From IMG/VR virus record IMGVR_UViG_2846068587_000001: DNA of 20,000 bases. One strand, written 5' to 3'. The stretch's first letter is position 1, and each line of letters opens with the position of its first letter. The notes below the pieces were generated by a model. The model made no database searches, had not been told where the DNA came from, and was given only the letters and a program-made list of their open reading frames with translations. A program made the position numbers and the translations under genes. The DNA comes from an uncultured virus (IMG/VR IMGVR_UViG_2846068587_000001) (Duplodnaviria > Heunggongvirae > Uroviricota > Caudoviricetes). This document shows, one piece after another, positions 513 to 19,506 of this stretch.

Positions 513-1174
513 TGACGACCATCGCCGATGTGATTGGCCGGGTGAATACCCAGCTGAAAGATACCCTCTGGGCGCGCTGGCCACTGGCTGAGCTGTGCGA
601 CTATTTCAACGATGCCCTGTGCGCCATTTTACTGGTGCGTCCTGAAGCCGGTGCCGAGCTGGCGCACTTGCCCTGTGTTGTCGGAACGCGCCAACAGCTG
701 CCTGCCGGTATTTTCCGCTTATTGGAGATTGTCCGTGTTCATGATGGCCAGGCGTTGTTACCCGTTCCGCGCGAGGTGCTGGACAGCCAGTACCCCGATT
801 GGCATCAACTGACCGGCCCCGTAGAGCGCTATTGCTACAGCGATAAAACCCCGTTGATTTACTACCTGTTTCCGGGAGCGGCGGAGGCGTTGATGTTGGA
901 GGCGGTGGTGTGCCGCACGCCGACCGCCGTGAGCATTACCACCTTGCAGGATGAGACGGCGCAACAATCCGTACCGCTTGACCCGGTGTACATCAATCCA
1001 CTTATCGATTGGATGCTGTATCGCGCTTTCAGTAAAGACAATGAGGGCGGCGCCAATGTGGCGTTGGCAATGCAGCATTATCACGTCTTTGCCGAGCAGT
1101 TGGGTATCAAGCAGCGTAGCGATGCGCTGCTTCGTCAGGCGTTGCGTAATCAGTATCTGGGAGGTGAGTCTTGA
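512..1174 (+). CDS. Phage adaptor-like virion protein (DUF6682-like)
   Basis: 220-aa ORF with ATG coupled to the upstream stop. Motifs '[14 protein letters not shown]...RPEA' and '[13 protein letters not shown]' resemble the conserved gene preceding the tail fibre in 933W-like podophages. Confidence 0.7.
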
Positions 1175-3972
1175 GTATTGTGATTTCCGGGGTATTGCTC
1201 GATCCCCTCGGCCAACCGGTCGCCCAGGCTCAGATTACATTAACGGCGACGACGAATAGCCTGCGTGTATTGCGGGGATTCAGTTGCAGTGTACCGACGG
1301 ACAGCGCGGGGCGCTATACCTTGGCGTTGGAGGCGGGCAGCTATGCGGTCAGTGTGGCTCACCAGGGGCGTAACTTTGTCTATGGCGCGGTGACGATCGA
1401 CGCGGACTCGGCGCCGTCCTCGTTAAATGTGTTGCTCCAGCAACAGGTGATGGAGCAGCAGGTGACGCCAGAAGTCATCCTCTATTTTCGTCAAATCCAG
1501 CAGGTCGTTGCCGAGGATATGGCGGCGGTACAACAGTTGTCCGAGCAGGCGAATCAGGCGGCGGCTCAAGCACAGGGCAGTCAACGCGCGGCGGTTGCCG
1601 CCGAAAACGCTGCCGCGCAGAGTGCTCAGTCGGCAGCGCGTAGCCAGCAGGCGGCCTCGGCCGCAGAAAGGATGGCAGGACAAAGTCAACGGGCGGCGCT
1701 CTCCTCTGCCGAGGACGCACGGCACAGCGCTCAGGCCGCCGCACAGACGGCGGAGCAGGCGGCGACCCTGGCGGCCAGCCAGACGGTGACGCAGTTAACC
1801 GAGGCGGTCAGGGATGAGCGGGAACAGGTGGCAGATCTACACCGTCAGGTGGAGGAGGCCGCCGAACGGGGCGAGCAACAGGCACGGCAGGCCACGGCGC
1901 AAGCCGATGCTGCGCACGCCAGCCAACAAGCGGCCAGTGCGGCAGCGAGTGTCGCCGAACAATCCGCACTTCAAGCGCAGGGTAGCCAGCAGGAGGCGGC
2001 CACCTCGGCGGCGCAGTCTCAGCGCAGTGCGCAAACGGCGCAGTCTAGCCAGCGGAGCATGGCGGTTGCTGCGGATAAAATCGTCAAAAGCGCTCAGACA
2101 CTGCACAGTGACCAGCAGCATTTCAACAACTTGAGAAAGGATGTCGAATATTGGCAGGATAGAGCCAGGTGTTGGGCGGATGACGCTAAAATGTACGCCG
2201 GCCAGGCCGCAGGGAGTGAATTTGACGCGAGATCCTCTTTGTTCGAGACAAGAGATCTCCGCGAAAACATCTTAGAGATTGCAGCGGAGATAGACGAGAG
2301 TGTGCGGCAGGCAGAGGCTGCCGCGTCACAGGCAGCCGAACGGGCCGCTAGCGAGGCGGCGACCCTGGCAGCAGAGCGCGCCGCCGCACAAGCCAGTGAG
2401 CAGGCTGCGGCCCAGTTGACGCAGATTTTCAGCGATGACCTTGCGCAAACGCAACAGCATCAACAGGCGGCTGCCGCCTCAGAGGCTGCGGCACAGCGTG
2501 CAGTGAAGAGCGCTGAGGAAATACTAGAGCAGGAACACGCGCGGACAAATGCTGTGTTACAGCAGGCGAACGAGGCCGCTGAAAATGCAGAGCAGTATGC
2601 GCATCAGGCTGAAATATCGCTAGAGGGAGCACGCGAAGCGGCTGAAAATGCGCAAGATTCAGCCTTACTTGCCCAGTCAGCCAAACAAGATACTGCCCAG
2701 TATGTCGCGGAGGTACAGGCGCATACGCGTCAGGTGGTATTATCGGCGCAACAAGTTAAGGATGACACCGATACCAGTGTGCAGCTGGCAGAGGAAGTGG
2801 CTCAATTAGCGCAGACCACCCGATCTCTGGTGGTGAAAGGCCAGGAGCACGTTGAACGCATCGAGCGAGATCTTCAGCTAAATGAGGATAAGGCACCGCT
2901 AGCGAGTCCGGCTTTTACCGGGCATCCCACGGCGCCGACGCCGGATAAGTCGGCTGCCGGACAAGAGATCGCGACCGCGGCCTTTGTGTTGGCGCAGATA
3001 GCGCAGTTGATTAATGCTTCTCCGACGGCGCTGGATACCTTACAGGAGCTGGCCGCAGCGCTCGGTAACGATCCCAATTTTTCGTCAACGGTGATGACGA
3101 TGATTGGCCAGAAGCTGGATAAGGCGCAGAACGGGGCTGATATTCCGGATAAGGCCCGTTTTCTGGAGAATATTAGTATCGTCGAGGCGACGACCTCGCG
3201 CAAAGGCATCGTGCAGTTGAGCGACAGTATCAGTAATAACAGCATGAAGGTAGCGGCCACCGCCAATGCATTACGGCGTACTTATCTGGAAGCGACGCGA
3301 GCGGCCAGTACGCGTCAAGTGGGCCGAGTACAGCTTAATGACACCTTAAACAGTATCAGCACCACCCAGGCGGCGACGGCCAACGCCGTCAAACGCACTT
3401 ATGACGAGGCCACCCGCACCGCCAGCTATAGCCAGTATGGGCGGGTACGAGTCTCTAATAACACCAGTGATCCAGATACCACACGCGTGCCTACCTCAGA
3501 TGCATTACGGCGAGTTTACCTGGAGGCCACCCGCTTAGCCACCGTAAACCAAGTCGGTCGGGTTCAGCTTGAGAATAGTCTCTATAGCAGTAGTACGACA
3601 CGGGCAGCGACAGCCAAGGTGGTGAAAATTGCATACGCGACTGCCACTATTGAGGCCAGCCTCGAACGTCCAGGACGGGTGCAGCTCAACGACGATCTTG
3701 ATAGCTATAAAACCAATCAAGCGGCAACGGCGAATGCCGTCAGGCGAGCCTTTGAAAAGGCGGCCGATGCGATGACGTTGGCGCAACAAGCTATGGCGCA
3801 GATAACGACGTTGTCCCGGCTTCCCGGACCGCCGGGGCCTCCGGGGCCGCAAGGTGAGCCCGGACCATCAGGTCCACCAGGGCCACAGGGGCCACCTGGC
3901 CCTCAAGGTCCTCAAGGTCCTTCAGGCTCTAGTTACTCCAGTTCGGGGGAGCGTCATGGTTCGATTCGCTAG
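1171..3972 (+). CDS. Tail fibre protein (prophage tail-fibre N-terminal domain, Ala/Gln coiled-coil, fibre repeats, collagen C-terminus)
   Basis: N-terminus '[13 protein letters not shown]...ITLTA...[20 protein letters not shown]' is of the lambda Stf type. It also has the fibre motifs '[18 protein letters not shown]' and '[17 protein letters not shown]', five 39-aa repeats and a Gly-Pro-X run. SD GGAGGT lies upstream of the TTG start. Confidence 0.93.
3184..3768 (+). repeat. Five tandem 39-aa (117-nt) tail-fibre repeats
   Basis: Units begin [56 protein letters not shown] and [14 protein letters not shown]; each continues with an AATANAV/L-like motif. Confidence 0.9.
3826..3933 (+). repeat. 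Collagen-like Gly-X-Y repeat (12 triplets)
   Basis: [36 protein letters not shown]. Confidence 0.95.
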
Positions 3973-3987: not shown

Positions 3988-5613
3988 GTGGTAATAGATA
4001 TCCCCCTGATGCGCGGAGAGCGTCCGCGTGTCATTGGCCACCTCTTACCGGAGGCGTGTGCCACGCAGGCGCGTAATTGCCATTTTCGTCATGGCGTGAT
4101 TTCGCCCTTGAGGGAAGATCTGGAAACCTCCATTACACTGCCGATCACTCCGCGCACCCTGTTCCATTACCGGGATGACTTCTGGTTCACCTGGCCGCGA
4201 CGGGTCGATGCCATACATAGCCCGGTGGCACAGGATCAATACGGCCGCGTCTATTTTACCGATGGTCAGGCTCCCCAGGTGACCAGTGCATCGATCGCCA
4301 CGCGGGGGCAAGGGCGTTACCCCGCAGCCAGTTATCGCTTGGGCGTCCCCGCACCGCCATCCCCGCCACAGATTGGGGAGATTTGTTATCCCGAGGGGGA
4401 GGAGTTGAATGATCCGCTGGATGACGAAACCCGGTTCTATGTCGAGACCTATGTGACCGCCTATGGCGAAGAGGGACCACCGGGGCCGGTCTCGCACGAG
4501 GTGACCATCCCTTATCCTGGCAGCCGGGTAACGTTACAGCTTGCCGCGTTGGTCGCGCAGAATCACAACATTAGTCGCCGGCGGCTCTACCGTTCGGTCA
4601 CCGGCGGCGGTGTGGCGGATTATCTGTTGGTCGCCGAATTAGATATCGCTCAGACCACGTATGAGGATGCGCTGCCGTCGGCGGTCTTGGGTGGGGTACT
4701 GGAAACCTATGATTACCTGATGCCGCCGGACAATATGGTGGGACTGTGCCTGATGGCGAATGGCATAGCCGCCGGTTTCGCCGGGAATGAAGTGCTGTTT
4801 TCGGCGGCTTACCTACCCTATGCCTGGCCGAACGCCTACCGGCAGAGTACCGAGCATGACATCGTGGCGATGGCGGCGTTGGGCACATCGTTGGTGGTGA
4901 CGACGCAAGGTTATCCCTATCTGTTTAGCGGGGTATCGCCGGGTAGCATGACCAGCAGTAAGCTGCCGATTTTGCAGGCCTGTAGCAGTGCGGATAGCCT
5001 GGTTGAGATGGATGGTTTCGTGCTGTATGCCTCGGTCAATGGCTTGGTGTCTGTTGATCACCAAGGCAATGCGCGGCTCGCGACGGAGGGGATTATCGAT
5101 CCCCGCCAGTGGCGTCGCCAGTTTCGGCCAGAGACGATACGTGCCTGGTCGGTGGAGGGGGAGTATTTCGCCCATTACCAAAATGCGCAGCAGCGGCGCG
5201 CCGGTTTTATTTTTGATCCTCAGGCGATGGACTTGCGCCATACCGATAGCGTTTTTGACTGTGCGGCCCGGCAGCTGGCGAGCGACCAGTGCTATATCGC
5301 CCGCCAACAACGGCTGTACCAACTCCAGCAGGGAACGCATCCCCGCGCCATGTACTGGTGCTCTAAGGTTTTCCTGGCACCGGCGAATACGGCTTTTTCC
5401 TGCCTACGGGTATTGAGTCCACAACCGTTACAGGTGGGGATCCACCTTATCATCGATGACGCGATCGCCTTTAGCTTACCGCCCGGTACGTTGACGGAGC
5501 CGGTGGTGAAGTTACCGCCGCTCACGGGACGGCGCTGGCAGATCGCCTGTTATGGTACGGCGCAGGTCGATCGCCTGACGCTCAGCACCTCTATGGCCAG
5601 GTTGCCCGCATGA
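3988..5613 (+). CDS. Phage tail structural protein (probable nozzle/stabilisation-type)
   Basis: 541-aa beta-rich ORF with motifs 'GERPRVIGHLLP...A..ARNC', 'YVETYVTAYGEEGPP' and 'FSAAYLPYAWP'. It lies between the fibre and tail-tip genes, and its stop overlaps the next ATG. Confidence 0.7.
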   Translation: MVIDIPLMRGERPRVIGHLLPEACATQARNCHFRHGVISPLREDLETSITLPITPRTLFHYRDDFWFTWPRRVDAIHSPVAQDQYGRVYFTDGQAPQVTSASIATRGQGRYPAASYRLGVPAPPSPPQIGEICYPEGEELNDPLDDETRFYVETYVTAYGEEGPPGPVSHEVTIPYPGSRVTLQLAALVAQNHNISRRRLYRSVTGGGVADYLLVAELDIAQTTYEDALPSAVLGGVLETYDYLMPPDNMVGLCLMANGIAAGFAGNEVLFSAAYLPYAWPNAYRQSTEHDIVAMAALGTSLVVTTQGYPYLFSGVSPGSMTSSKLPILQACSSADSLVEMDGFVLYASVNGLVSVDHQGNARLATEGIIDPRQWRRQFRPETIRAWSVEGEYFAHYQNAQQRRAGFIFDPQAMDLRHTDSVFDCAARQLASDQCYIARQQRLYQLQQGTHPRAMYWCSKVFLAPANTAFSCLRVLSPQPLQVGIHLIIDDAIAFSLPPGTLTEPVVKLPPLTGRRWQIACYGTAQVDRLTLSTSMARLPA

Positions 5614-7178
5614 ATAAACGGCGAGCCTTTCGGGCCGGACGTAACCTAGAGGCGGTATATGAAAACATCGAGCTGATAACCGGCCAACGTGGTGATGGTC
5701 AGGATCGCGCCATTACGGCCCGTGATTTGGTGGCATTGGGACTCGCGCGCTTGGGGCGCGCACCAGGCGGGCAGTTTCAACCGTTGCCGGGCGTGGATCC
5801 GGGGATTATTTCCCGTGACGGTGTAACGGGTGGCTTTGGTCAGGTCGATTTTCCGCCACCACCCGAGGCGTTGCAGGCGCATGGGGGCTTTAGTGCGGTA
5901 CTGCTGGAATGGAAAATCCCGCGTTACCGAGGCCATGCGTTAACGGAGATTTACCGCCATAGCGAAGATAATCTGGCCGATGCCGTTCTCGTGGCGACCT
6001 CGGTTTCGACGCTGTATGGCGACCCTGTCGATCCAGGGTGGCAAGGCTTCTACTGGGTCCGCTTCGTCAACATCGCGGGGGTGGCAGGGCCATTCAATGC
6101 GAGCGCGGGGACGCCCGCCCAAACCAGCCCTGAGATAGGTGTGGTGGTGTCGCTGATTGAGCGTGAGATTAATGACTCTCCCTTGATATCGGAATTAGCC
6201 GCTGAACTGGAAAACGGTCAACAGGCACTGATTGAAACAGGTGAGCGCCTAACTACCGTTGATCGCGATGGTAGCCAGGCTTTCCAGGCCCTATGGAGCC
6301 AGAAAAGTCGCGTTGGTGAGATTAGCGCTGGTATCGGCATCGTCGCAGGCAGCGATGCGCAAGGGAATCCCTTGAGTCAGGTGGCGATTGCCGCCAATCA
6401 GTTTTTTGTCTTTGACCCCAATAATCCCAACGATGACGGCACCTACGCGTTCCCCTTTGTCGTGGATGGGACGAGTGGCCGGGTCATCATGGCGAAGGCG
6501 GCGATAGAGCAGGCGACGATCCAGATTTTACAGGCACAACGTATTGTGGCGGATGAGGTCAAGGCTGGGATTTCGCTCAGTGCGCCCCAGATCACCGGCG
6601 CGCAGATTTTTGCTTCCGCCATCACCAGTTTAGGGAATCCTCCTCGCTTCGCCTTGACGCCCGATGGGGGGCTGTTTGCGCGTCAGGCGGATATCAGTGG
6701 TCACATCAATGCTACCAGTGGCCGTCTGAGTCGCGTCACCATCGATGAGACATGCGATGTCAAAGAGATCCGCGCCGAAACCATCAAGGGCGATATCGTC
6801 AAGGTCATCACGCTGAGACTTGGCATGCCGTTGCAGATCAGTGCCGCCCCCTTTGATCGCCTACTGTTTGCCATGCCAGTGGCGGCCCATGGTACGACCT
6901 CGACCAGTACCACCAGTTCAGGGAGGGAGGGGCGAGATAGAACTAGTACCAGCTACTCTGGGACGCGAATAGGCATCAACATCAATGGCCGAGAGGTGGT
7001 GGTTGCTGACCAATTTGGCTCAGGGGTCGATGTAGGGACGGCTATCGAATCCATCCCCGCTGCAACGAATATTACGCTGGAGTTGTGGGTTGAAAAGAGG
7101 AATGGCAATTCTACGCGACGTTATACCGATGACCAGACTATCTCAATGACGCTCAATTGCCTGCTGTACAAGGCTTAA
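5610..7178 (+). CDS. Tail tip / host-specificity protein (FN3-like region plus DUF1983/lambda-J-like C-terminal part)
   Basis: FN3-like 'FYWVRFVNIAGVAGPFN'; DUF1983-like 'AIAANQFFVFDP...FPFVVDG...AAIEQATI'; J-like 'ARQADISGHINATSG...VTIDETCDV...IKGDIVK'. Confidence 0.8.
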   Translation: MNKRRAFRAGRNLEAVYENIELITGQRGDGQDRAITARDLVALGLARLGRAPGGQFQPLPGVDPGIISRDGVTGGFGQVDFPPPPEALQAHGGFSAVLLEWKIPRYRGHALTEIYRHSEDNLADAVLVATSVSTLYGDPVDPGWQGFYWVRFVNIAGVAGPFNASAGTPAQTSPEIGVVVSLIEREINDSPLISELAAELENGQQALIETGERLTTVDRDGSQAFQALWSQKSRVGEISAGIGIVAGSDAQGNPLSQVAIAANQFFVFDPNNPNDDGTYAFPFVVDGTSGRVIMAKAAIEQATIQILQAQRIVADEVKAGISLSAPQITGAQIFASAITSLGNPPRFALTPDGGLFARQADISGHINATSGRLSRVTIDETCDVKEIRAETIKGDIVKVITLRLGMPLQISAAPFDRLLFAMPVAAHGTTSTSTTSSGREGRDRTSTSYSGTRIGININGREVVVADQFGSGVDVGTAIESIPAATNITLELWVEKRNGNSTRRYTDDQTISMTLNCLLYKA

Positions 7179-10396: not shown

Positions 10397-13300
10397 GTGG
10401 CGAATTCCCCTCAAGATCTGCGCCCTGAACAGCAACGATACGCTGTCGAGCGGCAGTCGTTGAATATCCAGCAACCGGATGAAGGCCTGGCGCGCTACTG
10501 GGACAGTTATGATCCCCAGAAATACTCCGGGCTTTCTGATGAGTCAGCGGAAAATAGCGGCAATATTTTTTCCGACACCGGTAATCTGCTCCTGAGTGGT
10601 GTGGCCTCTACGGCAGCCAGCCTGCGGGAAGGGGCAAGAAAGGCGATGCCAAATAGTGTCGTTTCTACTGCCGCGGATCTGCTTGCCCAAGGATTGGGTT
10701 TTGATGAAGAAAAATTTTGGCGAGACAGTCAACAAAAGGCTGTGAGTCGGTTGTCACCGGATATGCAGCAGGCGCGGGACAAGACGTTCTGGGAGAGCGG
10801 CCAGGGCTTTGGGGAGGCCTGGAGTGATCCGCGCAGCTATTTCGCCGGGGCCGTCGAGTCGCTGCCGGGTATGGTGGTGTCCATGGTACCGGCCATGAGG
10901 CTGGCTAAGCTTACCTATAGCGCGAAGGTAGCGCAGGGGGTCGCGGCGGAGCAAGCAGCGAAACAAGCAGCGCGGGTCGCCAGGTTGGCCGGAGCCATCT
11001 CGGAGGGGGTGCAGGCAGGAGGCGCGTCATCCCGTACGGTTAAAGAGACCATTTATACCCTGCCGGATGATGTATTACAGAACTCGGAGGCGGTACAGAA
11101 TATGTTGTCCTCAGGGATGAGCGTGGAGGCGATACGCCGGGCGCTGGCGGAGGATGCCTCGACCAAGGCGTTTCTCATTTCGGGGGTGGCGACGGGAATG
11201 TTCGGCGGCCAAGGCGATACGGTGATCGCCAAAATTATGACCGGTCAGCTCAAACAGGGGGTGATGAGGCGCTTTGCCAAAGGGGCGGTGGCTGAGGGGC
11301 TTTTTGAGGAAGTCCCGCAGTCGGCTCTTAGCCAGATGGCGGAAAACTATGCCTTACAATCCGCCGACCCGCAGCGCCCGCTCTCCGATGAGGTAATGAA
11401 TCAGGCGCTCGGTGGACTGGCCATCGGCGGCGTGATGGGCGGATCGCTGGCGGCGGGGAGTCGCACGGGTAAGTGGCAGGCGCAACACGATACGCAGCAA
11501 GCAAAAAACGATCAGCTGGCGACAGACGATGCCGCAGGGCCAACAGAGGCGCAAGCGCAGGAGGCCTATTCACGCTATCAAACGCAGTTTGCGTCGTTGG
11601 ATCGCGACACGCTGTTACAGCATTACGCCGAGGCCGATCTGTCTGAGGCGCCGGATGCGGCAGAGAAAAAACGCGCGGCCCATGAGCGACTACAGGCGCT
11701 AGAACATGACGAGGAGGTCAAGAAGGCGGCGAAGGCGTTGCGCGGGTTACCTCGAACCGATCTGCTGGCGCAGTACCATACGCTGAATGAAAAGGCGACG
11801 CGCACGGCGACGGAGCAGCTACAGTGGGAGGCGGCCCGTTGGCTTCTGAGGCAGCGGATGGCCGCGGCGACCCCACGGACTTCAACGAGTGCGGCATCGG
11901 GGGATGGGGTGGAACAGGAGAATGCGGCACGGGAGGATTTGCGGACATGGCAGGCCGCCCCCTTATCTGACCAGCATATCCGCGGGGGCCCTGAATCTAT
12001 GAACGAGGCCCGCTGGCTAGGGGCCCCTCCCGATCCTGCTGTGGTGCAAGCGTCATGGCCGGAGGAAAAAACGGTCGAGCTTTCCTCGCAGCCAGCTTAT
12101 CAGCGACGCGATCCACGGATTCAGGGTTTTGCGGAGGATAGCCCGTTACAACAAGTGTTATCTCAGCCTGGGGCACCTTCGGCGATAGAGCTGGTCCAGG
12201 CGCAAATGCAGCGTGGTGAGCAGGGGCTGACGCCTGATGAATGGAGGACGCAATTACAGGCGGAAGAGTCCCGCCAACAGCGAGCGCCCCGGTTACCCGC
12301 GCCGGGAGATATTTCACCGGGAAGGGGATTTCCGCTACCGGGCCCGGTGGCGCAGGTGGACGATAGGCCAGCAGGGTCTGAGCCAGAGTTTTCTGCGGGG
12401 GTTCGCACGGTTTTACGTCCTGGCGAAGCGGACTCACCAGGCACGGCACAGAGGGCTGCGCAATCATCAACAAATCCTGCGTCAACGTCTGAACAGCGTG
12501 CCGTGGTTATGCCCACGTCGATGGAGCCGCAGGCTAGCGGGCAGCCTCCGTCTGTGGTACCGCCGGACGATAAGGGGGCTCGCGTCGAGCGGGATATCCC
12601 GGCATCGACCGAGATCGCGCCGGAGCCACGCCAGAAGACGTTTTATTCACACCAGCCCGATCGTCCGAACGGTAGCTTATCTTTTGAGCGCGTGTCGCAG
12701 ATTGTCCAAGATTTTGAACAGGAGTATAAGGGTAATATCCCTATAGAGATTAGGGTTTACCGGCGTCAGGAGGATGCATATGGACCACAAGCCACCAGAG
12801 AAAACGTTGGACGTATTGCCGGAGCCTTCCACGGAGGGGCAGGACGAAGGGCAGTATCTCGATATCCCGATGCGAGTAACGCGCTTCGAACCGCCGCCGG
12901 CACCCTCCACGGAGGGAGAGGGCAAGTATCTGGAGATCCCCGAACTGATAACGTTACGCGACCCTCCTTTGTCTTGGTCAACGCCGCCAGCATCCGAGAC
13001 GAAGCCGATGCAAGACGTACCCTGCGACACGAAATCCTCGGCCACTTCGGCCTCAATACCTTTACGCCAGCGGATAAAAGACAGATTTTGGACGCGATTA
13101 TGGCGGCGCAAGGAGAAAAAGAACTAAGCACGTTGTGGAATGAGGTCAGACGTGGCTACTCCCATAAGTCTCAGTCTATCCAGGCTGAAGAGGTGTTTGC
13201 CTTAGCCGCCGAGCAGGAGCGAAAGGAGCGCGGCGTCCGTTCTGGGCGGCGTGTTATCCCAGCTCGCGTATTACATCTTGTGCAGAAGGGATTACGCCGC

Positions 13301-16300
13301 ATCGGACTGGTCACGGGAGGCATGAGGCTTGGCGAACTGTATGATGCCGTGGATGCAATTTCTGAAGGTATTCGACATGGTCATCGTCAGCAACAGATCT
13401 TCCCGGTGGATGATCATGCGCAGTTTAAGCGGGAGGAGGCTGACGTTGCCGACGGGCGTACGCTGCCGCATCCGGCTCAGCGCCCGCCTTGGCCAGACGA
13501 TTTCCCCGATGTGGTGCTCCATGCCCGGCTGGGGGGCGCGACGGGCCATCCTGACTACACGGCGGCCAAAAACGGGGATAAAGACGCTGCTTACAGGTTG
13601 GTTGCTGATGTGCTTAATAAGGCTGCCATCGACGATATCAGGAGTATCATCGGTAACCACCGCGTAGTGTTGACCGCCGTTCATGCCGAAGAGGCGAGCG
13701 GACGTAATAAAATTCCGTTGGCGATGGCTGAGGTATTGGGAAAAGTTCTGCATCAAGAGGTCGATAGCGGCATCGTGCAGACTGTGCGAGTGGGGCGCAG
13801 CGGAATGGATGGTTTTGCTCGCCTAGCCAATCAACCCAGTTTCGCCGGAGAGGTGCGCCGCGATGCGCACTATTTCATCCTGGACGATACCCTGACGCAA
13901 GGGGGCACCTTGGCCGGATTGCGGGGGTATATCGAGGCGCAGGGGGGCCAGGTGATCGGCGCCTCGGCGTTGACGGGTAAAATGTATTCAGCAAAAATGG
14001 CGTTATCGGCATCGACATTGTCGCGCCTGCGCGTCCATTTTGGAGGGAGCAACCTTGAAGCGTGGTGGAAACAACAATTTGGCTACGGTTTCGACGGACT
14101 CACCGAGTCCGAAGCCCAGTACCTCCTTCGTGCCGGGGACGCTGACGCCATCCGAGATCGCCTCCTTGCAGCGCGACAAACGGGAGGCTCACCAGTATTA
14201 CCAGAAACTACTGGAGACGGTAGACCTCTCCCACCTGATGTAACCAACCGCTCTGCGCAAAACGCCTCCCAACACGGAGGCGTTTCTGTTTTAGGCGAGG
14301 ATAACCGGCTGACGGAGACGGGACACAGCCCAGAAGTCGCCAGCGGGAATAACCCGATCCCACAGATTAATGCCGTCGTGCGGGGCGTCCTGCGCAAGCT
14401 GAATGCGCCATCGCTGCATGTGCGGGTCGTGCAGACGCAGAAAGAGGCCGAGCCCTTGGCCGGTGAACCGCTGGAGCAATACGGCAAGGTTCACGCCTTC
14501 TACCGCCCACAGTCGCGGGAAATCGTACTGATTGCCGATAACCTCCCTACGCCGCGCATGGTGCGGGAAAAACTGCGCCATGAAGTGATCCATCACGCCT
14601 TAGAGCAGGTGATCACGCCCGAGGAGTACCAACGCATCATTGACCGGGTGATGGAGACCCGAGCGAGCCGAGATGCGGTGATCCAACAGATTTGGCGCCG
14701 AATCGATGCCGCCTATGGACAGGAGTCGGTCGCGGTACAGGCCGGGGAGTTTCTGGCCCACATGGCAGAAAAACAGATGCCGGGCCGCTTTAGCGCGTTA
14801 TGGGATCGGGTCGTCTCACTGATCAAAACGCTCCTCAACCGCATCGGGCTGCTGCCTACGGTCGATGCCGAGAATCGCATCTATCTACGAGATACCTTAC
14901 GCACCTTGGGTCAGCGGCTACGCCAGGGGTATCGACCGACCGGCTCCGCCACATCAGCCGATGTCCCCAACGCGAAGGCGTCTACACCGCAAGAGCCCCT
15001 CAATCCGCTGGCTGACGATGTGCGCAATAATCAGTCCCGTTACTCGCGTGAGGGCAGCGCCCTTGAGCAAACGATACGGCGTAAAATGGGACTCGAACCT
15101 GAACATGGCTGGGGCGATAAGGCGCACGATTTCTACCGTGATTGGAAGGCCCAGAGTCCATCGGCGCGTCGGGCATGGCTGCGTGATCTGGGACGGCGCT
15201 TAAATACCGCCACCTTTGATGGCCTGGCACCGATCAAATATGCCGAAGCGAGCCAAGGCAACGTGGAGGCGGCCCGTTCGGCCTATATCGCCGCGCGCCT
15301 GGCCGCCGGCGCCAATACGGTGATGGCGGCGACGCTGGAGCATGGCCTACCTGTCTACAATCCGCAGAGTGGCGTCATTGAGCGCAAGGCGGGCAGCGGC
15401 AAATCGGATGCCTTGCTGGGGATCTTGGATGCGCTGGGGAAACACCGCGAGGACTTCTTTATTTGGATTGCCGGGCATCGCTCCGAACGCCTGATGCAAG
15501 AGGGGCGAGAGAAGCTGTTCAGCGCCGATGAAATTCGCCATATGAAGGCACGGGATCGCGGCAAGGAGACGCTCTTTGCCCAGCAGAAGGTAAAGTATGA
15601 CGCGCTGGTCAAATCCCTATTGGATTTACAGCAGGCCACCGGACTTATCGATCCCGAGCGCCGAGCCGTGTGGGAGGATGCCTGGTACTTACCTTACTTT
15701 CGCCAGACCGAGGATGGCGGAGTATTGGGGCCTTGGTCTACCCGCGGGATCGCCAACCAGCGCAGCACCGTACGGCGTCTGAAAGGGGGTGAGCAGGCGA
15801 TCAACGATCCGGTCGAGAATCTGGTGAATTACGTGGCGCGCGCCATCGATGCGGCGATGAAGAATGAGGCGATGCGCCGGATGGTGGTCAATCTGGCGGA
15901 TAGCGGCGTAATTGCGGTGATCGAGAAACCCAATCGTATCGACTATCAGCGCCTAGGTAAGCGCCAGGGCGTGGCCAAAGTCTATCTGGAGGGCGAGGAG
16001 CAACTGGTCGAGGTGAGCGATCCGGCGTTATTCCGCGCCATCACCATGATGGATATGGAGCGCAGCAATGCCTTGTTTATGCGTGCCGCGCGTCAGGCTA
16101 AACGCATTCTGACCATCGGCACCACCAGCATGCCCGATTTTATCATCCGCAACTTTATGCGCGACTCGTTGCATTCCTGGGCCATCAATCCGGATGGGGT
16201 CCGCGCCGTCACCAGCGCCTGGGCCGGGCTGAAAAAAGCCTACCGCCAGGATGATACGCTGATCGAGATGATGTTCGCCGGTGCCACCTTTGGCGGCGGC

Positions 16301-17635
16301 TATGCCAACGCCTATGATCCGGCCAGCACCGCACAGAGTCTGCGCGCTATCCTGCGGCGCAAGGGGTACAGCGACAGCCAAGCGCGCCAGTTCGAATCCA
16401 CTATTCTCCGCGATGGGCAGGACGTATTACGCCGATTAGGTGGCGTCTGGTCGCGCTATCGCCACCTGAGCGAGGCGGCGGAGAATGCTAACCGCGTCGC
16501 GACGTATCAGGCGGCGTTAAAGGCGGGTAAGGGCAGAGCTCAGGCGGCCTATGAGGCGCGCGATTTGATGGACTTCAGTATGCAGGGGGCGGCGAAGAGC
16601 ATGATCGTCCTGACGGACATGTTGCCCTTCTTCAATGCCCGTATGCAGGGGCTGGGCAAGTTGGCGCGTGCGGTAAAAGCCGATCCACAGGCGGTATTGA
16701 AGCGGGGCGGCCTGATCGCCGCCGCCTCCGTGGCGCTGTTGGCGGCCAACTGGGATGACGATCGTTATGAGGCATTGCCGGATTGGGATAAGGATATCTA
16801 CTGGCATTTCTTCATCGGCGATCAGCACTTCCGTCTGCCGAAGCCGTTTGAGATTGGGCTGATGTTCGCGACGCTACCGGAGCGGATGATCCGCGCCATC
16901 GGCGGGCAAGAGAGCGGGAAAAAATTCGCCAAACTGGTGGCGCACAATTTCATGGAGCAGCTGGCGTTTAATCCCATTCCCCAGATCGCACTGCCGCTGG
17001 CCGAGAACCTGGTGAACTATGACTTTTTTAGCGGAAATCCCATCGAGGGAATGGCCGATGCCAATCTGCTCTCTGGCGCCCGCTATGATCAGCGCACCAG
17101 CCTGCTGGCCCGCCAGATCGGCGAGCAGTTGGGTTGGTCACCGAAGAAGATTGACCACCTGATCACCGGCTATACCGGCACCCTGGGCGCCTATGTGCTC
17201 GGGGCGATGGATATCGTGCTGCGCGGCATGGGGGATTACGGCGAACGCCCGGCGCTGCGCGTCGATGAGCTGCCGGTGATCAAGTCGTTCCTGCGCGGAT
17301 CGGCTGCGCCGAAATCAACCCAGTACAGCGACGATTTCTACCGCATGATGCAGCAGGCCAACCAGGTTTATGGCACGGTGCAGCGCTGGAAACGGGAGCG
17401 CCGGCTACAGGATAGCCGTGCGCTACAACGGGAGCAGCGCCACATCTTAGCCAGCCGGCCACGGCTTAACCGGACGCAGCAGCAGGTACGCCAGCTAAAC
17501 AGCCAGATCCAGATGATACAGCTGCACACCCGCCTCAGCGCCGAGGAGAAACGCCAGCGCATCGACAAGCTACTGGCGCGCCGCAACCACATCGTCCAGC
17601 AGGCGGTGAAGCGGATGAATCGGTGGTTTGAGTAG
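10397..17635 (+). CDS. Large polyvalent virion/ejection protein (zincin-like domain, phosphoribosyltransferase, second zincin-like domain, LPD38-like C-terminus)
   Basis: 2412 aa with SD GGAGG. Motifs: 'RHEILGH' (about 13028-13045), PRPP-binding loop 'FILDDTLTQGGTL' (about 13874-13912), 'RHEVIHH' (about 14579-14596), and LPD38-like 'DDDRYEALPDWDKDIYWHF...FRLPKPFEIG'. The N-terminal region is Gly/Ala-rich and membrane-interacting-like. Confidence 0.85.
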   Translation: MANSPQDLRPEQQRYAVERQSLNIQQPDEGLARYWDSYDPQKYSGLSDESAENSGNIFSDTGNLLLSGVASTAASLREGARKAMPNSVVSTAADLLAQGLGFDEEKFWRDSQQKAVSRLSPDMQQARDKTFWESGQGFGEAWSDPRSYFAGAVESLPGMVVSMVPAMRLAKLTYSAKVAQGVAAEQAAKQAARVARLAGAISEGVQAGGASSRTVKETIYTLPDDVLQNSEAVQNMLSSGMSVEAIRRALAEDASTKAFLISGVATGMFGGQGDTVIAKIMTGQLKQGVMRRFAKGAVAEGLFEEVPQSALSQMAENYALQSADPQRPLSDEVMNQALGGLAIGGVMGGSLAAGSRTGKWQAQHDTQQAKNDQLATDDAAGPTEAQAQEAYSRYQTQFASLDRDTLLQHYAEADLSEAPDAAEKKRAAHERLQALEHDEEVKKAAKALRGLPRTDLLAQYHTLNEKATRTATEQLQWEAARWLLRQRMAAATPRTSTSAASGDGVEQENAAREDLRTWQAAPLSDQHIRGGPESMNEARWLGAPPDPAVVQASWPEEKTVELSSQPAYQRRDPRIQGFAEDSPLQQVLSQPGAPSAIELVQAQMQRGEQGLTPDEWRTQLQAEESRQQRAPRLPAPGDISPGRGFPLPGPVAQVDDRPAGSEPEFSAGVRTVLRPGEADSPGTAQRAAQSSTNPASTSEQRAVVMPTSMEPQASGQPPSVVPPDDKGARVERDIPASTEIAPEPRQKTFYSHQPDRPNGSLSFERVSQIVQDFEQEYKGNIPIEIRVYRRQEDAYGPQATRENVGRIAGAFHGGAGRRAVSRYPDASNALRTAAGTLHGGRGQVSGDPRTDNVTRPSFVLVNAASIRDEADARRTLRHEILGHFGLNTFTPADKRQILDAIMAAQGEKELSTLWNEVRRGYSHKSQSIQAEEVFALAAEQERKERGVRSGRRVIPARVLHLVQKGLRRIGLVTGGMRLGELYDAVDAISEGIRHGHRQQQIFPVDDHAQFKREEADVADGRTLPHPAQRPPWPDDFPDVVLHARLGGATGHPDYTAAKNGDKDAAYRLVADVLNKAAIDDIRSIIGNHRVVLTAVHAEEASGRNKIPLAMAEVLGKVLHQEVDSGIVQTVRVGRSGMDGFARLANQPSFAGEVRRDAHYFILDDTLTQGGTLAGLRGYIEAQGGQVIGASALTGKMYSAKMALSASTLSRLRVHFGGSNLEAWWKQQFGYGFDGLTESEAQYLLRAGDADAIRDRLLAARQTGGSPVLPETTGDGRPLPPDVTNRSAQNASQHGGVSVLGEDNRLTETGHSPEVASGNNPIPQINAVVRGVLRKLNAPSLHVRVVQTQKEAEPLAGEPLEQYGKVHAFYRPQSREIVLIADNLPTPRMVREKLRHEVIHHALEQVITPEEYQRIIDRVMETRASRDAVIQQIWRRIDAAYGQESVAVQAGEFLAHMAEKQMPGRFSALWDRVVSLIKTLLNRIGLLPTVDAENRIYLRDTLRTLGQRLRQGYRPTGSATSADVPNAKASTPQEPLNPLADDVRNNQSRYSREGSALEQTIRRKMGLEPEHGWGDKAHDFYRDWKAQSPSARRAWLRDLGRRLNTATFDGLAPIKYAEASQGNVEAARSAYIAARLAAGANTVMAATLEHGLPVYNPQSGVIERKAGSGKSDALLGILDALGKHREDFFIWIAGHRSERLMQEGREKLFSADEIRHMKARDRGKETLFAQQKVKYDALVKSLLDLQQATGLIDPERRAVWEDAWYLPYFRQTEDGGVLGPWSTRGIANQRSTVRRLKGGEQAINDPVENLVNYVARAIDAAMKNEAMRRMVVNLADSGVIAVIEKPNRIDYQRLGKRQGVAKVYLEGEEQLVEVSDPALFRAITMMDMERSNALFMRAARQAKRILTIGTTSMPDFIIRNFMRDSLHSWAINPDGVRAVTSAWAGLKKAYRQDDTLIEMMFAGATFGGGYANAYDPASTAQSLRAILRRKGYSDSQARQFESTILRDGQDVLRRLGGVWSRYRHLSEAAENANRVATYQAALKAGKGRAQAAYEARDLMDFSMQGAAKSMIVLTDMLPFFNARMQGLGKLARAVKADPQAVLKRGGLIAAASVALLAANWDDDRYEALPDWDKDIYWHFFIGDQHFRLPKPFEIGLMFATLPERMIRAIGGQESGKKFAKLVAHNFMEQLAFNPIPQIALPLAENLVNYDFFSGNPIEGMADANLLSGARYDQRTSLLARQIGEQLGWSPKKIDHLITGYTGTLGAYVLGAMDIVLRGMGDYGERPALRVDELPVIKSFLRGSAAPKSTQYSDDFYRMMQQANQVYGTVQRWKRERRLQDSRALQREQRHILASRPRLNRTQQQVRQLNSQIQMIQLHTRLSAEEKRQRIDKLLARRNHIVQQAVKRMNRWFE
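12780..13127 (+). CDS. Putative nested (+1 frame) 115-aa protein within the giant gene
   Basis: SD AGGAGG (12768-12773) is 6 nt before ATG 12780. An internal duplication has changes mostly synonymous in this frame. Candidate promoter TTGTCC-17-TATAAG at 12702-12730. Confidence 0.55.
   Translation: MDHKPPEKTLDVLPEPSTEGQDEGQYLDIPMRVTRFEPPPAPSTEGEGKYLEIPELITLRDPPLSWSTPPASETKPMQDVPCDTKSSATSASIPLRQRIKDRFWTRLWRRKEKKN
14055..14243 (+). CDS. Putative nested (+1 frame) 62-aa protein overlapping the end of the PRTase domain
   Basis: SD GGAGGGAG (14042-14049) precedes TTG 14055. Helical-looking 'LTPSEIASLQRDKREAHQYYQKLL'. A terminator hairpin begins 17 nt after the stop. Confidence 0.55.
   Translation: MKRGGNNNLATVSTDSPSPKPSTSFVPGTLTPSEIASLQRDKREAHQYYQKLLETVDLSHLM
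14260..14292 (+). terminator. Intragenic intrinsic terminator inside the giant gene
   Basis: Perfect 10-bp stem AAACGCCTCC-caacac-GGAGGCGTTT followed by CTGTTTT. Confidence 0.65.
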
Positions 17636-18197: not shown

Positions 18198-18225
18198 TTG
18201 ACAAAACCTAAAGCAAGCGTATACT
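18198..18225 (+). promoter_or_regulatory. Near-consensus sigma70 promoter for antisense RNA B
   Basis: TTGACA-16 nt-TATACT. Confidence 0.65.
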
Positions 18226-18231
18226 GCAACC

Positions 18232-18296
18232 GCCAAGTTATTCGTATTCGCTTACGATAGGATAAGCCAGCGACAGCATTACGCTGGCTTTTCGTT
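18232..18296 (+). ncRNA. Putative cis-antisense sRNA B (about 65 nt; ends approximate)
   Basis: Strong promoter upstream; terminator AAGCCAGCG-acagcatta-CGCTGGCTT-TTCGTT at 18264-18296. Complementary to the leader of the 46-aa ORF. Confidence 0.5.
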
Positions 18297-18855
18297 AACT
18301 ATATCTAGTATTTGCATTTTTTTGCTTCCAGGTTATAGCTGCCTGCTTGCTAACTCCAAAGATGGTACTGATGTCGTCTTCAGACATCGACGGGGTAACT
18401 AATCTGGCATCGATAAGGAAGTGACTAGCAAAAACATCAGCTTGCCATTCGCTATCTTCGTATATTTTATGTCCTCCAGGAACTTTGTCTCGGGCATAAG
18501 CTATCTGATTTCTATGCATTATCAGGTGCCCTAACTCATGCGCAACAGTAAAGCGGGCATGTTTATCGCCATCGCATAAAGCGTCATAGATGGATTGCTG
18601 TAACACAATTTTATTTTTATCTGGATAGGTTACAGCATAACGTCCTGGTAAGTTATGGTCTTCTACAATTTCTAGGTTAATGATCTCTGATTGCATGAGC
18701 GCTTCTAAAATAACCTCTAGCTTAAGATACGGCTTGTTTGTTATCTGAAGCATTTCTCTGAGGTTATCCCTGAAGTAATGTGCGTAAAATTTGATCTTGT
18801 TATGACTTAGAGGTGAAACGCGATGGCCAAGTTCTCGTTTCGCAGTGATCATCAT
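18295..18855 (-). CDS. ImmA/IrrE family (M78) zinc metallopeptidase
   Basis: 'ARFTVAHELGHLIMH' (HExxH), 'EWQADVFASHFL', and a C-terminal HTH-like 'ISTIFGVSKQAA'. Coupled to the HTH gene by a TGATG overlap. Confidence 0.93.
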   Translation of the reverse strand: MMITAKRELGHRVSPLSHNKIKFYAHYFRDNLREMLQITNKPYLKLEVILEALMQSEIINLEIVEDHNLPGRYAVTYPDKNKIVLQQSIYDALCDGDKHARFTVAHELGHLIMHRNQIAYARDKVPGGHKIYEDSEWQADVFASHFLIDARLVTPSMSEDDISTIFGVSKQAAITWKQKNANTRYS

Positions 18856-19205
18856 CAGTCCTTCAACATTTCATTGAGTTTATCTACCTGTTCAGGACTT
18901 AGTCCCTTAAACTTACGAGCAAAAGCAAGCATTAACTCTTTGTTTTGGTCTTCAGTGTTAGACATATCTACCTTTAGAGATGGCTGAGAAAGTTCAGCTT
19001 GTCTCTTCAAAGTCTCTAGTTCTTGGTCGCTTAATTTAAAATTAGTTGCTAATGAATGTATTAGGGAATCGGGAATGGCTCGCTTACCTAATTCGATTGC
19101 TGATAGATATGCTGAACTAACCCCAAGCATATCAGCCATGTTCTTGAGAACCATACCCCGGTCTATCCTCAGTTTTCTGAGAGTCTTACCAAAGCTAGTT
19201 ACCAT
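18855..19205 (-). CDS. XRE-family helix-turn-helix transcriptional regulator
   Basis: Start reassigned to ATG 19205 with SD AGGAGG; 116 aa; 'FGKTLRKLRIDRGMVLKNMADMLGVSSAYLSAIELGKRAIP'. Confidence 0.93.
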   Translation of the reverse strand: MVTSFGKTLRKLRIDRGMVLKNMADMLGVSSAYLSAIELGKRAIPDSLIHSLATNFKLSDQELETLKRQAELSQPSLKVDMSNTEDQNKELMLAFARKFKGLSPEQVDKLNEMLKD

Positions 19206-19233
19206 GTTGTGCCTCCTACATATCTCTTTATAC

Positions 19234-19262
19234 GTTATACAGAAAGCAAAACTCAATTTCAA
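19234..19262 (-). promoter_or_regulatory. Candidate sigma70 promoter of the HTH-peptidase operon
   Basis: TTGAAA-17 nt-TATAAC on the minus strand, 28 nt upstream of the ATG. Confidence 0.5.
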
Positions 19263-19506
19263 CAAAATCTGTAGAATAATTTCTCTGAACATGTGGATTC
19301 ACTCTACTCCTAAAGAGTCGGCCAAGCAAGACTGATTGATAAAAAACCCTACATATTGTGCTTGTTATGATTATGATTACATATATATGGTTTTTTTCCT
19401 AGTGTAAAGAGACTAGTGCCGCAAGTTCCCTCCCTCCTAACCAGGTCCTCTTCATTAAAGACTTCGAACGCAACACATCACCCTAGATCATGCCCCCTGT
19501 TGTAAC

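Follow-up and report, generated by a model that had tools for sequence, protein, structure and literature searches.

Phage morons are units of promoter, gene and terminator that lie inside the late operon, between genes and not within coding sequence. The unit described here likewise comprises a putative promoter, a gene and a terminator-like hairpin within a late operon, but lies inside a coding sequence. A precedent for a gene nested out of frame in a larger one that encodes its partner is traH, in traI of RP4 (PMC7314908); TraH is a relaxosome factor, unlike the candidate antitoxin considered here. The PRTases of polyvalent proteins described by Iyer et al. (2017; PMC5512222) are of the same class as the overlapped domain: they have a DD motif, are ComFC-like and occur in polyvalent, MuF and solo settings. 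Their role is called enigmatic there, however, no partner is named, and the word "overlap" is absent from the main text. In the MuF toxin-immunity pairs of temperate phages (Jamet et al. 2017, PMC5576092), a virion-associated toxin domain is followed by a small ORF for 89% of toxin genes. The MuF toxin is C-terminal and its immunity gene is downstream, whereas the candidate toxin domain here occupies an internal position, with the small gene wholly nested out of frame. PRTases are not mentioned there. ShosTA (PMC11961720) also includes a toxic PRTase, but ShosT has an extra pyrophosphatase domain and its DNA-binding antitoxin acts indirectly (type IV).

A described toxic homologue is KfrC of IncP-1alpha and IncU plasmids. 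Mitura et al. (2021; PMC8124265, section 2.3) reported that overproduction of KfrC inhibits growth and that changing DDT to AAA abolishes the inhibition. According to the same article, intact full-length kfrC is toxic when overexpressed, kfrC1-249 was not clonable under tacp, two-hybrid fusions of kfrC1-249 were cloned, and a kfrC deletion plasmid is stable in E. coli. There kfrC is handled as a single gene, and the terms "antitoxin" and "open reading frame" are absent from the main text. The PRTase domain, the pattern of a toxin with a small downstream ORF and the precedent of a nested gene are already known. In a literature search covering mainly the main text of open-access papers, neither the small nested ORF nor an antitoxin for the PRTase/KfrC family was found described.

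The window, a 20,000-nucleotide stretch of an uncultured virus (IMG/VR IMGVR_UViG_2846068587_000001), covers the part of a podovirus-like prophage that encodes tail and internal virion proteins. Its nearest named relatives are Edwardsiella prophage proteins, and the nearest virus record stops 5' of the PRTase region. The features under discussion are listed in Table 1. LPD38 lies at the end of the 2412-aa ORF. A phage phi24B protein of the same class is packaged, and its ejection has been proposed (bioRxiv 10.64898/2026.04.10.717836). By analogy with this protein, gp47, the 2412-aa protein is probably a packaged ejection protein.

Table 1. Features of the giant virion gene and of the unit nested in it (window coordinates)
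Feature	Position	Strand	Basis
2412-aa polyvalent (LPD38) protein	10397..17635	+	ORF list; LPD38 E 1e-46; PHROG 616/18222/10089
ComF/ShosT-like PRTase domain, KfrC N-domain homologue, candidate toxin	13460..14200	+	model, fold matches, KfrC identity
Allele-variable PRTase block, co-switches with peptide tail	13559..13783	+	62-77% identity to L001
Catalytic DD motif (DDT)	13883..13888	+	invariant in 73 aligned proteins
Internal sigma70-like promoter (putative), TTGACG-17-AAAAAT, within LTGK..SAKM codons	13970..13998	+	TTGACG 13970-13975, AAAAAT 13993-13998
Shine-Dalgarno site GGAGGGAG	14042..14049	+	duplex energy -9.8 kcal/mol
62-aa +1-frame gene, candidate antitoxin	14055..14243	+	TTG start, 62 codons, TAA 14241-14243
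Conserved helix motif LTPSEIASLQRDK, LTPSEIxSL type	14142..14180	+	132/139 loci, 76/83 non-redundant
Allele-variable tail of small protein, HQYYQKLLET type in window	14189..14233	+	57% identity to L001, L086; 84-91% to L003, L004
Intrinsic-terminator-like hairpin and U tract inside giant ORF	14260..14292	+	10-bp stem 14260-14285, T-rich tail

The overlapped domain has the type I PRTase fold and DD motif of the polyvalent-protein PRTase/KfrC family. It was modelled at a pLDDT of 93, and its structural matches place ComF at rank 1 and the toxin ShosT at rank 4. The N-domain of KfrC is 41-45% identical (E to 2e-45), PHROG 22413 matches at E 2e-62, and the DD pair is found at 138 of 139 PRTase loci. 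The PADLOC profile of ShosT matches the PRTase only at E 0.06, over 33 residues, which does not place it in ShosTA. No MuF domain was matched in the window protein, and its PRTase is internal rather than C-terminal, as a MuF toxin would be. The PRTase is present in 1/61 family-level and 2/5 genus-level genomes.

A small gene overprinted on the 3' end of the PRTase domain had been proposed in a preliminary description of the window, and its promoter, GGAGGGAG, TTG start at 14055, 62 codons, stop and stem were all found where that description placed them. Conservation was examined in homologue DNA, for which the 80 best metagenome matches (out of 549) and the 80 best viral matches (out of 138) were taken along with a few others; the set is therefore biased toward closer relatives. 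A PRTase match was present in 165 of the 167 sequences, and removal of 24 exact duplicates and two loci without the anchor motif left 139 (both of the latter still have the +1 ORF and the TTGAC site). The non-redundant set contained 83 PRTase genes less than 80% identical: 43 solo, 14 C-terminal and 26 embedded.

The +1 frame is under selection as a coding frame. With the expected number of stops derived from each PRTase's own residues and codon use, the three blocks over window positions 14057-14182 have 0 stops in the 83 genes against 2.8, 86.9 and 28.5 expected, or about 118 in sum. Directly upstream of 14057 there are 4 stops against 12.3 expected, and blocks farther upstream match expectation. 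No comparable depletion was seen in the +2 and reverse-strand frames of these genes, and a 134-aa antisense ORF (14083-14487) was therefore rejected. Synonymous identity is 0.73 in the motif region against a background of 0.35 (sd of 15-codon windows 0.05), and the use of CGA/AGA for Arg and the alternation of Asp and Asn retain E-I in the +1 frame. The seven loci without the motif pattern have variant or shifted motifs, and L30 and L38 of the peptide are invariant in 70 aligned rows. The product is predicted to have a disordered N-half and a single helix (residues 32-55).

Selection also extends to the ribosome-binding site. Most homologues start at an ATG that lies about 19 codons 5' of the anchor motif; the Shine-Dalgarno sites in front of it have a mean energy of -3.7 kcal/mol, against -1.7 for controls (p 9e-10). 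The window, L004, L005 and L086 are without this family ATG and have a strong Shine-Dalgarno site before the TTG equivalent to 14055 (-6.1 to -10.7 in the three relatives). An ATG just before the motif, present in 64% of homologues, was rejected as the start; it is without a Shine-Dalgarno site (mean -0.4), and stops are avoided upstream of it.

The preliminary description judged that so many signals in order were unlikely by chance. For the promoter in the single window this does not hold, as 11 such sites occur against 10.7 expected from shuffles, but the evidence from homologues exceeds chance. The Leu of LTGK, at the -35 position, is encoded by TTG in 69 of 83 genes against 18.2 expected, with 9-20 at other upstream Leu columns, and this site is under selection. 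The first base of the -10 box is not conserved; its -11A (73/83) and -7T (82/83) are, although the PRTase residues encoded at these positions largely dictate both. Where the -10 box encodes Arg, the codon is AGA or AGG in 8 of 9 cases. The TTG bias and the -10 codons fit the prediction of selection on a TTGAC-17-nAnnnT promoter. Conservation of the promoter-like site stops at the KfrC clade, where TTGAC is missing at the LTGK position.

The 14260 hairpin is the top terminator match of the window (folding z -3.55), although three of its ten pairs are A-U pairs belonging to the U tract. The stem itself is as first described, but it is conserved in part only. With a terminator defined as a hairpin at or below -10 kcal/mol that lies 3' of the stop and is followed by a T tail, one is kept in 10/25 embedded, 9/14 C-terminal and 6/32 solo copies, the controls for embedded copies being 2/75 downstream and 11/75 in-gene. 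The hairpin occurs in 10 of the 16 closest loci, and that of L004 carries a two-sided stem change. Four RNA runs of the 24 listed were examined. Contigs ended near the hairpin, at 14246-14267, in two of them: X7 spans 13985-14267, and X4 spans 13337-14246 and so starts far 5' of the promoter. X16 reads through and X9 is without coverage of the gene. The contigs are a weak hint of an internal transcript; depth (145 vs 3-16) cannot rank parts of the gene and was not used. Of the independent transcription unit first proposed, a real, separately initiated gene with a conserved promoter-like site is supported, whereas the terminator is not a general part. The unit may be moron-like, with its own expression in the lysogen.

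The same small ORF occurs in solo PRTases, MuF fusions, plasmid kfrC and polyvalent proteins, as expected from the proposal that the overlap keeps the two genes together. Among the 14 C-terminal fusions scanned, four are MuF proteins, as is one more protein that has an intein. The two-gene linkage is conserved: the motif is found at 132 of 139 loci, and the +1 frame is open in 12/12 annotated phage and plasmid records, ten of them with a clear motif. Only Mcat8 among these records has part of the small ORF annotated (the plasmid gene tables are incomplete); 62-aa hypothetical proteins are already annotated in some Edwardsiella records (P0163, P0178, P0194). Searches with a peptide profile returned 337 proteins in one case and 1196 representative proteins at E <=0.001 in another, and those listed are without a family name. 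The peptide has no match in PADLOC, Pfam, NCBIfam or PHROGs, nor among GenBank phages; its Atlas matches are unnamed and under 0.9. The DNA has no match in E. coli genomes. The neighbours of solo PRTases are diverse, with no constant third gene. Judged from the sequences compared, the unit is a family-wide two-gene module and not peculiar to the window virion protein.

Among the plasmid matches of the PRTase are the kfrC/traN genes from IncP and IncU plasmids. The small ORF is likewise present, without annotation, in kfrC/traN of IncP, IncU and related plasmids (L170-L173, L175-L178 and L179, the last being RA3, NC_010919 ~4300-4472). KfrC differs from the window protein in having a plasmid-specific C-domain, and its small-ORF start is shifted to codon -5/-7. 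The hidden ORF of RA3 spans kfrC codons 171-260 without a stop, and the kfrC1-249 construct therefore lacks the end of the ORF, namely its final 10 residues and the stop. The failed cloning of kfrC1-249 is explained equally well by loss of the KfrC C-domain. Intact kfrC is toxic in excess despite carrying the ORF, and the fragment was cloned in two-hybrid fusions; both observations weigh against the antitoxin reading.

The alleles of the small protein are tied to those of the PRTase. When the window and L001 are compared in 18 blocks of 45 nt, 12 are 95-100% identical; those that fall below are in the variable PRTase block and the peptide tail. L003 and L086 differ by the same two switches in a different background. 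Among 120 full-length proteins, 112 could be typed, the peptide tail being judged by proxy from the main-frame reading. Proteins with Tyr at PRTase position 45 have a YYQ-type tail in 93/93 cases and those with Arg a non-YYQ tail in 19/19, so that pairing holds in 112/112; both types occur in three backgrounds (3/6, 3/1, 87/3). No mismatched recombinants were found among the 112, though the DNA between the blocks has clearly been exchanged. The typed proteins are clonal, and the pairing therefore reflects few independent events, perhaps only 2-4. Such co-switching fits any physical partner of the PRTase. Mutual information between PRTase and peptide columns (K84-D41 at the top) was discarded as confounded by clade; the R189 pairs lie in a gappy column.

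It is probable that the 62-aa gene encodes an allele-specific antitoxin (immunity protein) of type II-like action, nested in the 3' end of the toxin gene that it overlaps. The inhibitor role suggested at the outset draws indirect support from allele co-switching and from the published toxicity of KfrC; by analogy with the DDT-dependent toxicity of this homologue, the window PRTase is a candidate toxin. With the late operon silent, the internal promoter would yield a short transcript (~14005-14290). The helix of the peptide would bind and block the PRPP-using PRTase; a lysogen, or a cell making virions, would thereby be protected against its own PRTase as well as against a matching PRTase delivered by sibling virions. 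Like ShosT (PMC11961720), the PRTase would upset the pools of PRPP or nucleotides, whether it is delivered in the ejected protein or made from solo or plasmid genes. Because of the overlap, the toxin domain could be fused in the middle of a giant protein without loss of its antidote.

Allele co-switching and tight linkage would also suit a peptide that is a genuine partner of the PRTase but serves as an activator, adaptor or chaperone subunit, and Iyer et al. (PMC5512222) propose that these enzymes produce or sense nucleotides during DNA entry. This reading is nevertheless unlikely: toxicity of KfrC depends on DDT, the construct that clips the ORF failed to clone (PMC8124265), and a separate promoter would suit constitutive immunity better than a late subunit needed in stoichiometric amounts. 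Nor does the peptide appear to be cargo of its own that acts on a target in the host or in a rival phage, and a regulatory ORF whose translation tunes the terminator and read-through is no more likely. Copies without the PRTase core do exist (the complete provirus G004 and the 66% complete G003), the conserved helix is in tandem in 7 of 261 listed matches, and long versions are fused to HEPN, SH3 or GmrSD domains in 3/9. However, the tail allele follows the PRTase allele across ~400 nt of recombined DNA, the terminator is missing in most copies, and polymorphic toxin systems commonly include orphan immunity genes. Both the cargo and the regulatory variants are accordingly given little weight. 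The persistence of the peptide without the PRTase core in G004 also makes it unlikely that the peptide is the toxic part.

If a programmed ribosomal frameshift led into the +1 frame, the PRTase would gain an alternative C-terminus and the giant protein a short isoform. CT(T/C) GAA is conserved near the start, and a few database proteins (P0243, P0267) join the PRTase part to the small protein. Their junctions, however, are at different points, as from assembly indels; the +1 frame opens at an ATG with a Shine-Dalgarno site, often just past a stop; a -35 site is conserved upstream; and the start moves in KfrC. A frameshift is therefore highly improbable. A last alternative is that there is no gene and that the PRTase sequence by itself produces the +1 conservation. 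This view can be defended from the chance-level promoter of the single window and from the N-half of the peptide, whose composition is typical of off-frame sequence. It is scarcely credible given the absence of stops where the expectation came from the PRTase residues themselves, the rare CGA/AGA codons and D/N alternation that keep +1 residues, and the tandem duplication of the motif outside the overlap.

If the antitoxin reading is correct, the antidote would explain an enzyme whose function was unclear; the reading also bears on the unexplained toxicity of KfrC on broad-host-range plasmids. A widespread toxin-antitoxin family, to judge from the 1196 representative matches, would have been mostly missed by annotation, and a toxic domain could sit in the middle of a virion protein of 2400-4500 residues and still carry its immunity gene. 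Deletions and truncations of kfrC would change two genes, a warning for such constructs. A broader proposal is put forward tentatively. Polyvalent virion proteins would carry self-contained immunity cassettes nested in their own genes; the PRTase, once injected, would stall rival elements or cells that lack immunity, while the nested peptide would protect lysogens in an allele-specific manner; and kfrC of IncP/IncU plasmids would be a toxin-antitoxin locus that has gone unrecognised. Other domains may follow the same design, for instance the first HExxH peptidase domain of the giant protein.

Over that peptidase domain lies a second +1-frame ORF (12774-13127, +, 117 aa) with AGGAGG 6 nt 5' of an ATG at 12780 and an internal repeat that stems from a 78-nt duplication. 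Among the few homologues, L001 and L190-L192 keep this frame open, and L193/L194, at 50% identity, have a shorter version of it. Within giant phage genes without the PRTase core, the small gene itself is found at L183:2400-2640 and L187:2490-2700, the latter also with a terminator-like hairpin; these copies are possible orphan immunity genes. Elsewhere the small ORF continues into HEPN, SH3, GmrSD or unnamed 70-aa domains (L026:3087-3983; L036:3081-4340; L082:734-1921; L049, L068, L073, L080), as if its promoter and start had captured downstream genes.

The giant gene has ~180-575 nt of extra DNA at window 14928-15011 in L001, L085 and L086, which on sequence grounds marks this as another domain-exchange site. 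Located 3' of the giant gene is a low-GC pair encoding an HTH protein and an IrrE/ImmA-like peptidase (18295-19292, -), with a near-consensus TTGACA/TATACT promoter on the opposite strand (18198-18225, +). Finally, the tail fibre at 1171-3972 (+) ends in a collagen-like repeat and a Ser-rich tail; the latter is similar to a segment close to the C-terminus of the protein encoded at 5610-7178.
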